A stretch of 51,451 nt of DNA from an uncultured Gammaproteobacteria bacterium (GTDB lineage Bacteria > Patescibacteriota > Patescibacteriia > Patescibacteriales > GWC2-42-12): positions 1 to 51,451 of the forward strand of contig CAZGKM010000009.1 in NCBI GenBank assembly GCA_964526325.1, read 5' to 3'. A model generated the notes under the pieces. It did no database searches. It worked only from the letters and a program-made list of their open reading frames with translations, and had not been told where the DNA came from. Position 1 is the stretch's first letter, and every line of letters starts with the position of its first letter. A program made the position numbers and the translations under genes. Positions 3,278 to 24,432 of the stretch are shown piece after piece.

Positions 3278-4003
3278 TTAAATTTTATTTTCTATAATTA
3301 AATAATAATTATATTTATCTTTATATATTCTCTCTAATTTAAAACCTGCGGCGGCAACAAGCTTTTTTAAATTATTTTTTGTAAAAATATGATAATAGCG
3401 GCTGCTGATTTTTTCGCCCTTATTATTTTTCCAGTCAAAAAGAATATCGCCGAAGTCCATTGTATTTTTATTTACTAATTTAAGCCAGCTATATTTTATA
3501 ATCAATTTTCTGAATTTCGCCCGGCTCCATAAATTCCAAACGGTAATAATAATTTTACCTCCAGGTTTTAATTTTCTTTTCATCTGTCCAAGCGCCTTAA
3601 GCCGCAGTTCATTTCCCGGCAAATGGTGCAAGACCGCGATGCAAAAAATATAGTTAAAATTATTTTCTTGAATTTTATCCAATTCCAAAACATCGGCAAC
3701 TTGAAATTTGCATTTTGTATTTTGTATTTTGTTTGAAAATTGAAAATTCTTATCAGCCGCCTCAATCAGCTTCTCGCTACTATCTATTCCCAAATAATAA
3801 ATATTTTTATCAATAAAGGCTCCGGCCAGCCTGCCGTTTCCGCACCCCGCGTCCAGCACTCTGTCCCCGTCCTTAATCATGCCGGCTAATTTTACTAATT
3901 CCGGCCATAAATATTTTTTTCTGGTTAGATCAAAATCATCGGCAATTTCTTGATAATTCTGCCTGACTAAATCCAATAAATTTTTTTGCGTTTGTTGGTC
4001 CAT
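3278..4003 (-). CDS. Class I SAM-dependent methyltransferase
   Basis: Motif I VLDAGCGNGRL. Start moved to the internal Met (MDQQTQ..., cat at 4001-4003) because the upstream 20 codons lie in a TTGTCATT-type repeat. Confidence 0.8.
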   Translation of the reverse strand: MDQQTQKNLLDLVRQNYQEIADDFDLTRKKYLWPELVKLAGMIKDGDRVLDAGCGNGRLAGAFIDKNIYYLGIDSSEKLIEAADKNFQFSNKIQNTKCKFQVADVLELDKIQENNFNYIFCIAVLHHLPGNELRLKALGQMKRKLKPGGKIIITVWNLWSRAKFRKLIIKYSWLKLVNKNTMDFGDILFDWKNNKGEKISSRYYHIFTKNNLKKLVAAAGFKLERIYKDKYNYYLIIENKI

Positions 4004-4010
4004 AAACTTA

Positions 4011-4090
4011 TTGTCATTCCCGCAGAGACACTCTGTTTTCTTTTTCAGCACCGAGGCTAGCACAGAGGAGCAATCCAGGAGTGTTCGCGC
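4011..4090. repeat. Degenerate TTGTCATT-type palindromic repeat (family A relative)
   Basis: Starts TTGTCATTCCCGCAGAGACACTCTG (CAGAG/CTCTG hairpin) and contains GAGCAATCC. Lies between recQ stop and methyltransferase start. Confidence 0.4.
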
Positions 4091-4100
4091 TAAATATAAT

Positions 4101-6161
4101 TCATTTCTTACTCCGCATCTTCGCCATTACCAATTTTATCTCGTCCCAGCTATAATCATCGCCTAACGCTTCGCGAATCGGCGTTAGCTTGTCCGCGCCT
4201 ATTTTTTTAACCGCGGCCATGATTTTTTTCTGCCGTTCGGGCTTTACCAGCTTGCTGATATTAACGCCCAATCCTTTTTCCGCCAAAAAACATAAATGCC
4301 CAACAATCGTGCCGACCGTAAGCTCGCGCGCTTCGGCGATTTTTTCCAGGCTTAACCCCTTATTCCATAATTCCAAAGTTTCCAATTGCGTTAATTTAGT
4401 GGACAGGCCGGAAGTTTTCTTTTTGTTTCTGGTTTCAACCTGCGCTTTTTCTATTTCACCCATATTTTTTACCAAGCAATTATCGCACTTAGCGCATTTT
4501 TTAGATTCAAAATCGCCGAAATAATCCAAAATATATTTTTGCCGGCAATCAAAATGATAAATATAATTTTCCATCAAATCCAATTTTTTATAAGCATGCT
4601 TTAATTTATATTTTAACGCCGCGAAATCAAGCTTAACTTCTTCGCCACCGACGCGTTTTAAAATTTTTAATTCCGTACCGCGAAATGGCGGCATATACTC
4701 CAGTAAATTCAAATCTTTTACTTTCTTAATTAAGCGCAGTAAAGTGTCTTTTTTAATTTGCAAAATATCGGCTATTTCTTCCATATTGGCGTACATGCCG
4801 GCCTCAAGTTCATGCCCATACTTATCAAACAATTTTTTTATCGTCTCGCGCTGTTTTTTATTATTAATTAAACTTTCCGTTTTTAACTTTCCGCTTTTAA
4901 CTTTTAAATACGCCTGCCCGACGCGATCATGCGAACGGGCAACGTAGCCTTCGCGTTCCAAAATTTTTATAGCCGTGCCTACGGCCATTTCCGGCGCCTT
5001 ATCGGAAAGCATCTCTGAAATTTCAGCATAAGTGATTAAAATCGTTTCCGTTTCGTAATTTTTTAAAATTTCATAAATTTCTAAAATCATTTCCGGCGGC
5101 GGATTATCGCCTTTTATAAAAAACTCTTGGAGATAGCGGTCGCGCGGGCTATAAAGCAAAAGGCAAAAACTCTGCTTGCCGTCGCGGCCGGCCCGGCCGG
5201 CTTCCTGGTAATATGCTTCAATCGTGCCCGGCATATCGTAATGGATGACGAACCTGATATCGCGCTTATCTATGCCTAAGCCGAAAGCGTTGGTGGCCAC
5301 GATAACTTTGGCTTTGCCTTTCATAAAATTTTCCTGCACCCATTTCCTGTCTTGCGTATCCATGCCGGCATGATAGCTCACGGCTTCAATATTATTGGCG
5401 AGTAGCGTCTGCAGAAGTTCGTCGGCTCGCGATCTTGTGCCAACGTAAATTATGCCCGTACCGTCCGGCACGCTTGAAATCGCGTCTAAAACAAACTGCG
5501 GCTTACGGCTATCTTGAGTATTAATTACCCCGAACTGTAAATTCGGCCGGGCAAACCCCGTAATCACTAAATTAGGATTAACCAAGCCGAGCTGTTTAAT
5601 AATATCATCTCTGACTTCCAGCGTGGCCGTAGCGGTTAAAGCCACGACCGCCGGACTGCCTAAAAATTCAATCGCGCTTTTTAATTTAATGTAGCTTGGC
5701 CTAAAATCATGCCCCCATTGGCTTATGCAGTGCGCTTCGTCAACCGCGAATAAACTTATTTTTATTTCTTTCAAAGCGGCCGTAAATTCCGCGCTGTAAA
5801 ATCTTTCCGGCGCGATATATAGCAGTTTATATTGCCCGGCTTTAACGGCTTCTACGCGGTTAACGGTTTCAGCCTGGCTGATAGAAGAATTAATAAAAGT
5901 AGCCGGTATGCCGATTTTTTGCAAACCGTCGACTTGATCTTTCATTAAAGCGATCAAGGGGGAAATTACTAAAGTTACTCCGTCCAATACCAGCGCCGGC
6001 AATTGATAACATAACGACTTGCCGCCGCCGGTCGGCATAATTACTACGGTTGATTGGCCGGCTAAAATATTATCGATTACTTTTTCCTGGCCGGGCCTAA
6101 ACGACGAAAAACCGTAATGTATTTTAAGTAACTCCAGAAGTTGTTGTTTTTGATTATCCAT
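4101..6161 (-). CDS. recQ: RecQ-family ATP-dependent DNA helicase with C-terminal HTH-like extension
   Basis: PTGGGKS Walker [16 protein letters not shown], zinc-binding C..C..C..C region ([18 protein letters not shown]), 686 aa. Confidence 0.92.
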
Positions 6162-13106: not shown

Positions 13107-14816
13107 TTATATCAAATTCTTCGCCATATAACTACCCTGTAATTTATAGCCTAATTTCCGATAATATCCTCTTACGCCCACGCCGGCGATCACGACCATT
13201 TTTTTATAACCTTTAAGCCGCGCGATTTTTTCCGCCTCGGCCATTAGCATTTTACCCAAACCGGCATGCTGAACTTTTTTCGCCCGCGTTGAGTTTGCCG
13301 AAGCGCCAACAGAAACAAGCTCGCCGTAAACATGAAGCTCCCGAATTAATGCTGTTTTGCCCCCTTTAGCAAAGGGGGACAGGGGGAATTTCATGTTTTG
13401 CTTCACTAATCTTAACCGGCAAAATCCATATAAAATTTTTCCATCCTTAGATTCATAACTTAAGAAATATTCTTCACCAAATGAAGCTTTATATTTTATA
13501 ATTTTTAACTTTATACTTTTAACTTTAAACTTTTGATCTCCGGCTTCCCGGCATCTAATGCATTTACAGGCCACGCCGCGGTCTTTCATTACTTGCCTTA
13601 AATTAGTTATTAAATTACCGGCCATAATCGATTCGCCAGGAATATCGCGGATCAACCTGATAATACGCACATACTGCGGCACTATTTTTTTGCACTCTAC
13701 GATTAAATTCTGTAAAACTTTATCGGAATATGGCTTATACTTTCCGGCGCGCCACCATTTATATAATAAGCTGCCGCGCGTTACCACGGTCGGATAAAAT
13801 TTTAACTGGTCGGGTTGAAACCGCTGGTCGAAAAATAATTTTTTAAACATGGTTAAATCTTTTTTCGCCGTGGCGCCATAGAGACCGGGCATAATATGAT
13901 AAGTCACTTTAAAGCCGAAATTTTTTAAAAGTTCGGTGGCGCCGACGATTTCCGCCACTCCATGTCCGCGCTTATTTAATTTTAAAATTTTATCATCAAC
14001 CGCCTGCACGCCGAGTTCTACTCGCGTCGCGCCCAGCTCGCGCATTTCCAGTAATTCTTTATCATTAATATAATCCGGACGCGTCTCAAGCGTTATGCCG
14101 ATAATTTTATATCTGGCGCTTTCATTTTTTTTCTGTTCAGATAACAATTGTTGTTTCAATTTTTGCTTGTCCTCCGAAACTTTAGCGGAGGAGGAAATTT
14201 TTTTGTGATTTGGGATTTTTTTTCTAAAATCATTCGCCGCCTTAAAGCACCGCGTTATATACCAATACTTATAATTTTCCGGCAATACCGACCAAGTGCC
14301 GCCAATAACAATCAATTCGATCTTCGTCGGCTCATGCCCGTTAGCTTCTAAAGCGCGCAAGCGCAACTCTACCTGTTTATACGGATCATAACCGCAGCGA
14401 ATTGCGCGCATAACCGCCGGCTCGTTAGACAGATAGCTTTGCGGCACGCCGGATTCGCTAGGGCAATAAGCGCACCGGCCGGGGCAGGGATAGGACTTGG
14501 TTAAAACCGCTACTGACGCGATGCCGGATAAAGTTCTGACCGAACGCTTGCGCAAAATTTTTTCCAATTCAGCTGAACTCCGCATCATGCCGGTTATTAA
14601 ACGCTTTTTATATTCGCTTAATATTTCCGAATTCAATAAAATACTGACTCCGTACTTTTTCGCCAGCTTTCTTTTAATCGCCATCAATTCGGCGCGCGAT
14701 TTTATTTTGTCTTTTAAGAGTTCATTAATGGCATCAATCCTCTTTTGTTTTTCCTTGATTGTCATTTCTTGGCGTGTTATTATTAAAACATGCAAATTTA
14801 ACCAAAATCTATTCAT
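13107..14816 (-). CDS. elp3: Elp3-like radical-SAM / GNAT acetyltransferase (tRNA U34 modification family)
   Basis: CPGRCAYCP (Cx3Cx2C) and C-terminal GNAT motif QHAGLGKMLMAEAE. Alternative start Met18 at 14765. Confidence 0.82.
   Translation of the reverse strand: MNRFWLNLHVLIITRQEMTIKEKQKRIDAINELLKDKIKSRAELMAIKRKLAKKYGVSILLNSEILSEYKKRLITGMMRSSAELEKILRKRSVRTLSGIASVAVLTKSYPCPGRCAYCPSESGVPQSYLSNEPAVMRAIRCGYDPYKQVELRLRALEANGHEPTKIELIVIGGTWSVLPENYKYWYITRCFKAANDFRKKIPNHKKISSSAKVSEDKQKLKQQLLSEQKKNESARYKIIGITLETRPDYINDKELLEMRELGATRVELGVQAVDDKILKLNKRGHGVAEIVGATELLKNFGFKVTYHIMPGLYGATAKKDLTMFKKLFFDQRFQPDQLKFYPTVVTRGSLLYKWWRAGKYKPYSDKVLQNLIVECKKIVPQYVRIIRLIRDIPGESIMAGNLITNLRQVMKDRGVACKCIRCREAGDQKFKVKSIKLKIIKYKASFGEEYFLSYESKDGKILYGFCRLRLVKQNMKFPLSPFAKGGKTALIRELHVYGELVSVGASANSTRAKKVQHAGLGKMLMAEAEKIARLKGYKKMVVIAGVGVRGYYRKLGYKLQGSYMAKNLI
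13359..13391 (+). repeat. Family C G5/C5 hairpin repeat inserted in frame in elp3
   Basis: GCCCCCTTTAGCAAAGGGGGACAGGGGGAATTT encodes FPLSPFAKGGK on the minus strand. Confidence 0.75.
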
Positions 14817-21857: not shown

Positions 21858-21961
21858 TTGTAATTGCGAGGAGCGCCAGCGACGAAGCAATCTCACGAAC
21901 TATTAACTTAACTAATTGTCCGTTAGATTGCTTCGCTCCTTTCAGTCGCTCGCAATGACAT
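21858..21961. mobile_element. Family A palindromic MITE/REP-like element (~105 nt)
   Basis: TTGTAATTGCGAGGAGCGCCAGCGACGAAGCAATCTCACG ... AGATTGCTTCGCTCC...GCTCGCAATGACA. Confidence 0.8.
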
Positions 21962-23343: not shown

Positions 23344-24432
23344 TTATGTCAACTCCTGATTCGCATCCGCTTTTAACTTCTGCCAAGGCGTAAATTTTTT
23401 CCTTTTAGCGTTAAAGTATCCGGCCGCGGCAATCATAGCAGCGTTATCCGTGCAATACTTAAAGTCGGGAATTAATAATTTCGCGCCGGTCAATTTTTCT
23501 CTAACCGCGCTTTCCAGCCGGCTGCGCAATTCTTTATTGGCCGCCACGCCGCCGGACAGCATAATATTCTGGCAGCCATATTTTATGGCCGCTTTAACGG
23601 TTTTATGGACCAGCACTTCAGCCACGGCTAGCTGAAATTCATAAGCATATTCAGAAATTTTCTTTTTCCAATTTTTATCTCTTTGCACTCCATATAATAA
23701 CGCGGTCTTAAGTCCGGAAAAGGAAAAATTGAAATCACCGGAATTTATCATTGGCCGAGGCAGAGTAATTTTTAACTTTTCACTTTTAACTTTTAACTTT
23801 GCCGCCTCGGAGGCAATTGCCGGTCCGCCGGGGTAGCCTAAACCTAAAAGTTGGGCCGCTTTATCAAAAGCTTCTCCGGCCGCATCGTCACGCGTCTGGC
23901 CTAAAACTTTATATTTACCGTGTCCGCTCATCAGTATCAGCATGGTATGCCCGCCGGAAACGGTTAAAATAAGCGCTGGAAATTTTATTTTATTTTTGAC
24001 ATTTGTCATTTGACATTTGTCATTGCTAATTGGCTCCAGCCAATTAGCGTAGATATGCCCTTCAATGTGATTAACCGCCACAACAGGAATGCGCCAGGCA
24101 TAAGCTAAAGTCTTAGCCGTTTCCACTCCAACCAGTAAAGAAGTTATAAGGCCAGGCCCGACCGTAACCGCAATCGCATCGAGCTTATTGGCCCCTCTTG
24201 CAAAGGAGGGATGGGGGGTTAAACCCGCTTTCTCTATCGCTTCATTAACCACCGGCAAAATATTTAAAACATGCTCTCGCGCCGCTACCTCCGGCACTAC
24301 GCCGCCGTATTTTTTATGTATCTCGATTTGCGACGAAACAATATTTGACAATACCTTAACTTTTCCGCCGTTGCCTTTAACTACCGAAACGGCAGTTTCA
24401 TCGCAAGATGTTTCTACTCCTAATATAATCAT
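23344..24432 (-). CDS. tsaD: tRNA N6-adenosine threonylcarbamoyltransferase
   Basis: ILGVETSCDET, GPGL, NHIEGH, VSGGHT, DDAAGEAFDK, LPRPM..FSFSGLKT, CTDNAAMIA. Confidence 0.93.
   Translation of the reverse strand: MIILGVETSCDETAVSVVKGNGGKVKVLSNIVSSQIEIHKKYGGVVPEVAAREHVLNILPVVNEAIEKAGLTPHPSFARGANKLDAIAVTVGPGLITSLLVGVETAKTLAYAWRIPVVAVNHIEGHIYANWLEPISNDKCQMTNVKNKIKFPALILTVSGGHTMLILMSGHGKYKVLGQTRDDAAGEAFDKAAQLLGLGYPGGPAIASEAAKLKVKSEKLKITLPRPMINSGDFNFSFSGLKTALLYGVQRDKNWKKKISEYAYEFQLAVAEVLVHKTVKAAIKYGCQNIMLSGGVAANKELRSRLESAVREKLTGAKLLIPDFKYCTDNAAMIAAAGYFNAKRKKFTPWQKLKADANQELT
24190..24220 (+). repeat. Family C G5/C5 hairpin repeat inserted in frame in tsaD
   Basis: GGCCCCTCTTGCAAAGGAGGGATGGGGGGTT encodes TPHPSFARGA on the minus strand. 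Confidence 0.7.

Follow-up and report, generated by a model that had tools for sequence, protein, structure and literature searches.

The genome of an uncultured member of the Patescibacteria (G000 in the coordinates given below) includes a stretch of 51,451 nt, referred to here as the window, in which the genes recQ and tsaD and an Elp3-like gene carry the same 25-nt string in the same reading frame. Here we show that these three 25-mers are the cores of five-unit heptanucleotide arrays, with (AAAGTTA)n on the coding strand (Table 1), and that the arrays are members of a class of repeats with a 7-nt period that is found throughout the genome and the lineage. At the three orthologous sites in related genomes, sequence comparisons indicate that the units of the arrays turn over. 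In our view, the arrays are likely to result from slippage or conversion in a 7-nt register combined with selection, without the action of a mobile module.

The 25-nt pattern has the form TTTTTAACTTT-NNN-CTTTTAACTTT, with plus-strand starts at 4880, 13502 and 23769. As the original prediction stated, exact matches to TTTTTAACTTTNNNCTTTTAACTTT are present in all three genes (plus strand, 4880-4904, 13502-13526 and 23769-23793), and the translations agree with the peptides and the shared frame that it described (tsaD reads KLKVKSEKLKI). The extra TAACTTT noted after the tsaD copy corresponds to a third copy of TTTTAACTTT, at 23791-23800. In the whole 1.12-Mb genome (40 contigs, 38% G+C) the 25-mer occurs three times, always inside the window. 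Chance had been regarded as not negligible; however, the identity of the copies is far above what codon usage leads one to expect. Firstly, none of 100 dinucleotide-preserving shuffles contained a match to the 25-nt pattern. Secondly, the genome-wide comparison with shuffled codons that had been proposed as a check gave a mean of 0.005 and a maximum of 1 (synonymous shuffles of 974 crude open reading frames (ORFs), 200 rounds), compared with the 3 copies observed. Because the synonymous shuffles fail to recreate the 25-mer, amino-acid sequence and codon usage do not explain it. Thirdly, the peptide KVKS.KLK occurs four times, against 0.005 expected from residue-shuffled proteins. The shared strand of the copies, to which meaning had been attached, is uninformative, because every long ORF between 193 and 28311 lies on the minus strand. 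The three exact copies are located within 19 kb, and near-matches with one or two mismatches are present on contigs C2, C5, C6, C7, C11, C15 and C30. Given these near-matches, a special clustering of the three copies in the window was rejected as a threshold effect. Furthermore, the tsaD array has 26 consecutive bases in common with an array in a gene resembling that of the CCA-adding enzyme on contig C6 (encoding KLKVKSEKLKVK), and the trio is therefore not special inside the AAAGTNN family.

The suggestion that the 25-mer represents a second family of in-frame mini-insertions holds in part. There is indeed a repeat family at the DNA level, which is in frame and recurs in housekeeping genes. 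It does not consist of discrete 25-nt inserts, however: each copy is really a tandem array of about 35 nt with a 7-nt unit, and in the flanks of 60 nt on either side the three copies share no similarity outside the repeat units. The alternative suggestion of a recombination hotspot received no support from these data. Both the number and the sequence of the units vary between AAAGTNN arrays, with the units in register. Since 7 is not a multiple of 3, consecutive units are read in the three frames by turns. It follows directly from the sequence that a perfect AAAGTTA array, and likewise its complement, has a TAA every 21 nt whichever frame is read. Therefore, every third unit of an array inside a gene must change at its last bases, and this forced change generates the unit-NNN-unit pattern, including its three variable nucleotides. 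Most variants in the family avoid TAA through the change of a single base (GTGA, read as Ser-Glu; GTAA, Ser-Lys; GTCA, Ser-Gln), and one forced variant between two consensus units reproduces the 25-mer exactly. The arrays are thus subject to an in-frame, stop-avoiding constraint.

Among the tandem repeats of this genome, a period of 7 nt is dominant. Three AAAGT in succession gave 26 matches at period 7 and 0-1 at periods 5, 6 and 8-13, and AAAGT triples at period 7 numbered 12 compared with 0.075 in synonymous shuffles. Tandem Repeats Finder (TRF) reported 253 arrays genome-wide at period 7, compared with 88 at period 6, 143 at period 8 and 189 at period 9; when a score of at least 40 was required, the corresponding numbers were 83 versus 9, 23 and 20. 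Different unit classes, such as AAAATTG, AAAAATT, AAAAAAT, AAATGAC and AAAAGTT, occur side by side. Intergenic arrays account for 115 of the 253 at period 7, and another 33 extend across the edge of an ORF, in a genome of which about 11% is non-coding according to the crude ORFs. Stringent arrays in the 631 ORFs of at least 200 aa also favour period 7, with nine arrays in eight genes; five were found at period 12, two at period 9, one at period 6, and none at periods 4, 5, 8, 10 and 11. A search with a regular expression for at least three AAAGTNN-like units returned 20 arrays in the genome: 11 in sense orientation inside ORFs, 3 antisense and 6 intergenic. The sense arrays are those of recQ, the Elp3-like gene, tsaD, RsmA, the AhcY-, CCA-adding-, PolA-, Tgt-, CysS- and UvrD-like genes, and one ORF end. 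Two of the antisense arrays, in PrmC and in Lgt, a membrane protein, are read as T-rich sequence and yield hydrophobic peptides. Among the hosts outside the window, only RsmA, PrmC and Lgt were confirmed with Pfam, the other names coming from a reading of the translations. Hence, at least 10 housekeeping genes contain in-frame AAAGTNN arrays.

The evidence on turnover comes from orthologues of the three genes in 30 related genomes: 10 congeners, 8 from the same family and 12 from the same order. In TsaD, the stretch from YPGGP..A to LPRPM is hypervariable. The array of G005 is homologous to that of the genome studied here, and other relatives have (GAATTAC)4 (G004), (AAATTAC)4 (G007), (AAAGTCA)4 (G025), (AAACTTC)4 (G019) or (AAAATAC)3 (G010) at this place, or small GC-rich hairpin inserts. 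When these linkers were combined with further loci from a public search, 19 of 102 had a self-match of at least 18/21 at a shift of 7 nt, and 0 of 102 at shifts of 5, 6, 8, 9 and 10. The RecQ site holds (AACTCGC)4 in G004 and G006, (AATATCC)4 in G015, and GAATTAA/GAATTAC units elsewhere; the Elp3 site holds (AATTTTC)3-4 in G004, G008 and G010, and also (AAAGTTT AAAGTTG)2, GAATTAC-type and CAATTTA/CAATTAA arrays. Such other arrays were seen in relatives at genus and family level, and ordinary non-periodic sequence of equal length in relatives at family and order level. Altogether, a period-7 signal was present in 35 of 85 site-by-genome cases and any other period in 1 of 85. Five genomes of the same order (G024, G026, G027, G028 and G029) have arrays at none of their 15 sites, and three of them (G024, G026 and G028) have only 1-2 matches genome-wide. 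AAAGTT-type arrays are common to several congeners at all three sites, and for this reason they are probably old within the genus. The frames are open through the array site wherever it was recovered among the relatives; a few matches had stops elsewhere or were fragmentary.

These alignments also bear on the question of whether the arrays add length. The TsaD linker had been suspected to be slightly longer than that of E. coli, and it is indeed longer than in the proteins compared here: it has 19 aa, compared with a baseline of 15 aa in many other Patescibacteria (the linkers extracted range from 13 to 46 aa), and the alignment with a solved TsaD (6nak_B) shows a 4-residue gap at the array. 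In RecQ and Elp3, on the other hand, there is no difference in length from the orthologues at the array site, which is the outcome that the original prediction itself had named as speaking against an insertion. GC-rich hairpin modules of 21-33 nt were observed in frame inside arrays of some relatives, namely in RecQ and TsaD of G009 (loci L010 and L038), TsaD of G012 (L029) and Elp3 of G017 (L069).

In some cases, differences between orthologous arrays are repeated from unit to unit. The TsaD arrays of G004 and G007 have equal lengths and differ at the same position in every unit (G versus A), and the RecQ arrays of G000 and G002 show parallel differences in both 14-nt half-repeats. Units of the same array have a mean identity of 0.66 in RecQ and 0.74 in Elp3; for units at the same position in different species, the values are 0.51 and 0.67. 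This pattern amounts to concerted evolution without net change in length. Particular unit families are also shared by many loci and genomes, and their abundance differs from genome to genome. With up to two mismatches allowed, 23 of 31 relatives contain GAATTAC x3 (45 matches in G017, 1 in G000), and none contains its reversed control. AACTCGC x3 is present in 5 of 31, with 27 matches in G006, and in G004 at the RecQ site alone. Across 151 genomes sampled from the phylum, AAT x4 matched about 6812 times with a period of 7 nt, compared with about 765 times with a period of 8 nt, and a hand count found at least 30 matches in 49 genomes at period 7 and in 4 at period 8. Octamer-rich Patescibacteria were also observed: G094, G041 and G142 have 77, 69 and 102 AAT x4 matches at period 8 (types such as AATAACGG and AATAAGCA). 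G094 and G041 favour octamers. The preferred register is therefore not universal in the phylum.

Structure prediction indicates that the arrays are located in tolerant parts of the protein. TsaD was modelled with AlphaFold2 from 38 sequences, with a mean predicted local distance difference test (pLDDT) score of 90. In this model, the AAAGTTA array corresponds to the last part of helix 202-214 together with the coil that follows it, and the 10-residue block 211-220 has a mean pLDDT of 70. The second tsaD array (residues 136-147) is a 12-aa insertion relative to a solved TsaD and is predicted to be disordered, with a pLDDT below 50. At the DNA level, single strands of the arrays fold no better than shuffled sequences (z +1.0 and -0.67) and have no hairpin potential. 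A different kind of mini-insert provides a contrast. In-frame inserts with a C-run, a second C-run and a G-run, which form a hairpin, were observed in tsaD (24192-24218, minus strand, TPHPSFARGA) and in the Elp3-like gene (13360-13386, minus strand, FPLSPFAKGG). The latter folds at -8.2 kcal/mol (z -2.3), and the former corresponds to residues 74-80 of the TsaD model, with a pLDDT below 50. The same kind of insert fills the TsaD linker site in G015, G016 and G017.

Table 1. Heptamer arrays and host genes in the window, with positions counted from its first nucleotide
Feature	Position	Strand	Units in sense orientation	Encoded peptide	Domains and other data
recQ heptamer array	4870..4904	-	AAAGTTA AAAGCGG AAAGTTA AAAACGG AAAGTTT		TRF period 14 x2.4 and period 7 (4871-4907)
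Elp3-like heptamer array	13499..13534	-	AAAGTTT AAAGTTA AAAGTAT AAAGTTA AAAATTA	KFKVKSIKLKII	TRF period 7 x5.1
tsaD heptamer array	23766..23800	-	AAAGTTA AAAGTTA AAAGTGA AAAGTTA AAAATTA	KLKVKSEKLKI	TRF period 7 x5.0, 89% matches
Second tsaD heptamer array, other class	23995..24024	-	AATGACA/AATGTCA	NDKCQMTNVK
Heptamer array in class-I methyltransferase ORF (3278-4063)	3707..3732	-	ACAAAAT-type
recQ host gene	4101..6161	-			DEAD, Helicase_C, RecQ_Zn_bind, HTH_40
Elp3-like host gene (radical-SAM/GNAT)	13107..14816	-			Radical_SAM, Radical_SAM_C; weak GNAT matches, one barely above the Pfam cut-off
tsaD host gene	23344..24432	-			Pfam TsaD, E 9.5e-87

How could such arrays arise? We propose that tracts of about 30-35 nt are generated and homogenised over and over by a mutational process acting in a 7-nt register. 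Candidates for this process are polymerase slippage and short-patch template switching, an idea that PMC4679880 and PMC4692102 attribute to Mrazek et al. (2007) for bacterial heptamer repeats. Selection would then retain stop-free, in-frame versions in tolerant linkers and eliminate those that disrupt the reading frame or the folding of the protein. The three copies would be identical because they have a favoured unit in common and are under the same frame constraint, and no transposition of a module would be required.

Several points weigh against this explanation. First, slippage by one unit (plus or minus 7 nt) would cause frameshifts in the host genes, and the homogenisation of four to five units without net change in length is left unexplained. 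Second, the length distribution of period-7 arrays shows another peak at 30-32 nt (47 arrays) and then falls sharply to 9 arrays at 33-35 nt, while lengths decay monotonically at periods 6, 8 and 9. This second mode suggests a set tract length; the spectrum of exact runs was uninformative because the arrays of this genome are imperfect. Third, specific heptamers recur at many loci and in many genomes, which is not predicted by purely local slippage of arbitrary sequence. Fourth, the correlation between the genome-wide heptamer load and arrays at the three sites is weak (Spearman 0.27, p 0.14) among relatives that are not independent. Fifth, the gene calls are crude ORFs, and the genome is a metagenome-assembled genome in 40 contigs. 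Finally, the loss of mismatch repair, which we considered as a cause, had to be rejected. A search for the MutL domain PF01119 gave no match in the 31 relatives, heptamer-rich and heptamer-poor alike, and matches in 28 of the 151 genomes sampled from the phylum. Heptamer-rich genomes (at least 30 AAT x4 matches by hand count) make up 6 of the 28 with MutL and 43 of the 123 without it, which is a weak trend among relatives that are not independent. MutL status thus separates heptamer-rich from heptamer-poor genomes weakly, and mismatch-repair loss is therefore no explanation.

It is tempting to speculate further. Many Patescibacteria might possess a repeat-writing or conversion process that is locked to a 7-nt register and acts independently of MutL-type mismatch repair. 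By laying down or homogenising stretches of about 30 nt in genes as well as in spacers, with no net change in length, it would be a main source of lineage-specific loops in their essential proteins. Such a process would be distinct from one-unit slippage; one possibility is a polymerase that has a 7-nt footprint and switches templates over short patches. We put this wider proposal forward as a tentative one.

Other explanations have to be weighed against slippage or conversion with selection. We regard as unlikely a tiny mobile element, i.e. a module of 25-35 nt that inserts in frame like the Rickettsia palindromic elements or the small dispersed repeats of cyanobacteria. Such an element would account for the presence of one unit family at many loci of many genomes, and it could be reconciled with a TsaD linker 4 aa longer than that of solved TsaD, with linkers of 13 to 46 aa, and with the true small hairpin inserts inside the arrays of G009, G012 and G017. 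However, the copies have neither ends nor flanks in common and differ in unit number and sequence; the arrays have no hairpin potential; and at least seven different heptamers occupy the orthologous sites. Moreover, a length difference between filled and empty sites is absent in RecQ and Elp3, and the 4 additional aa of TsaD fall within a linker of variable length.

It also seems improbable that the arrays are functional nucleic-acid sites, kept by selection because a protein recognises the 7-nt register on DNA or mRNA, as has been proposed for the TAACTGA repeats of Beggiatoaceae. The A-rich phase that returns every 7 nt over up to eight units in RecQ of G005, G007 and G008 would fit recognition of this kind, as would the recurring unit families, the length peak at 30-32 nt and the frequent inverted pairs among intergenic arrays. 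Yet the unit sequence is not conserved at orthologous sites, and the five genomes of the same order with 0 of 15 arrays do without them. In addition, the three arrays are located inside ORFs, at 632-1292 nt from the start codon, and according to the ORF coordinates none of them is found a few nt upstream of a start codon.

Convergence at the protein level, in which Lys-rich KxKxKS loops are selected in enzymes acting on nucleic acids and the DNA identity is a by-product, is very improbable. Most hosts do act on DNA or RNA (RecQ, Elp3, TsaD, RsmA, CCA-adding, Tgt, CysS, PolA and UvrD-like), but shuffles that preserve the peptide lose the DNA pattern (0.005 versus 3), which contradicts this reading. 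Besides, the reading frame differs between the two halves of the repeat, orthologous peptides at the same sites are non-basic (for instance KLQITNY, KFSIFNFQ and KYPISNIQ), and intergenic arrays with the same units exist. Chance in an AT-rich, Lys-rich genome, for which the low complexity of the sequence and a G+C content of 38% could be invoked, is refuted by the dinucleotide shuffles (0/100), the codon shuffles (mean 0.005) and the excess specific to period 7. The arrays also differ from phase-variable contingency simple sequence repeats (SSRs) in that the hosts are housekeeping enzymes instead of dispensable surface, antigen or restriction-modification genes, and in that the frames are open through the array sites recovered from the relatives.

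Contigs from four public runs of a single study revealed no indel at any array, although contigs cannot reveal rare variants. In RecQ and Elp3, the arrays are spanned by contigs of these runs, with no differences. In TsaD, some contigs stop at the array, and others have nothing but the array in common with the window (loose ends at 23766 and 23799; T>C at 23769); the latter probably derive from look-alike arrays elsewhere. In the same data, contigs of all four runs break or diverge at positions 21876-21961 of the window. Loose ends lie at 21925 and 21960/21961, and one run skips 34 nt, which suggests a strain-variable or repeated intergenic spot.

Some further observations concern the host genes and the intergenic repeats. 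In RecQ, about 190 aa (residues ~330-520; window 4602-5171, minus strand) separate Helicase_C, which ends at residue 328, from the zinc-binding match, which comprises residues 520-563 and only positions 21-66 of the profile. This segment, which is conserved throughout the order, gave only weak winged-helix/MarR-like Pfam matches (E ~0.002) and may represent a domain inserted within the Zn-binding region. A PrmC-like methyltransferase of 304 aa (G000:C6:27657-28571, plus strand) contains four heptamer-derived segments, ITNYKLL, LAFNFQLSTFNF, KYIIHNTKYI and KKYIIHNT. Intergenic heptamer arrays often form inverted pairs 20-60 bp apart, and a composite element based on AAATGAC, of about 50-58 nt, is nearly unchanged at four loci and shorter at several more. 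Examples of inverted or composite loci are G000:C1:46013-46088, C2:15377-15491, C6:31781-31889 and C11:13414-13518. These pairs and composites may be hairpin or terminator-like elements made of heptamers.

Heptanucleotide repeats have been described in other bacteria. Long heptanucleotide SSRs are over-represented in bacteria and mostly intergenic, and their origin has been attributed to polymerase slippage in a 7-nt register, according to Mrazek, Guo and Shah (2007) as cited in PMC4679880 and PMC4692102. The arrays studied here resemble them in having dispersed head-to-tail 7-nt units, an excess of period 7 over neighbouring periods and an enrichment in non-coding DNA. They differ in that many are in frame inside conserved housekeeping genes, have about four to five units, and exchange these units at fixed orthologous sites. 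Direct TAACTGA repeats of 2-6 copies are described by MacGregor (2015, PMC4679880) in marine Beggiatoaceae, some Cyanobacteria and Bacteroidetes; in that account they are located mainly a few nt upstream of start codons, and the cases within ORFs mostly concern protein ends or hypothetical proteins. As far as that description goes, both systems consist of heptamers with stops in all frames on one strand, which constrain the orientation of the repeats in ORFs, and the TAACTGA unit resembles the complement of the unit found here (TAACTTT); unlike the TAACTGA repeats, the present arrays are internal to essential enzymes and use many different units.

The short tandemly repeated repetitive (STRR) sequences of cyanobacteria, as presented in PMC4692102, are heptanucleotide repeats as well. 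Our arrays differ from these in belonging to another phylum with tiny genomes and in overwriting coding sequence. The cyanobacterial small dispersed repeats that Elhai et al. described in 2008 are said to be small hairpin elements embedded in heptamer arrays. Taken as such, the STRRs and small dispersed repeats would be similar to what we found in that one genome has several heptamer families and that GC hairpins occur inside the arrays of G009, G012 and G017. Rickettsia palindromic elements are palindromes of about 100-150 bp with defined ends, which add length and are in frame in genes. They share with our arrays the appearance of selfish repeats that essential proteins tolerate in frame in their surface parts. 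Our arrays differ in that they consist of direct repeats, span about 35 nt, have neither ends nor a hairpin, and add no length in two of the three cases. Lastly, the tandem repeats of Borgs are described as creating disordered protein regions (PMC9879509). By that description they are similarly fast-evolving tandem repeats in ORFs that give rise to low-complexity or disordered segments; the heptamer arrays have a 7-nt unit, and each array is read in all three frames.

The excess of heptamer SSRs, the cyanobacterial STRRs and the TAACTGA repeats are thus already in print, to judge from PMC4679880 and PMC4692102. A literature search combining heptamer repeats with the candidate phyla radiation (CPR) or Patescibacteria found no relevant paper, and as far as our searches go, arrays inside essential genes, at fixed orthologous sites and without change in length, are new. 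Heptamer repeats are a known bacterial oddity of unsettled origin. The fixed sites reported here can be aligned in essential genes of dozens of related ultra-small genomes, which makes the birth, homogenisation and decay of the repeats countable. The heptamer arrays account for part of the lineage-specific insertions and low-complexity loops in CPR proteins, and for annotation and structure prediction they serve as a warning that such loops are mutational by-products, not functional motifs.

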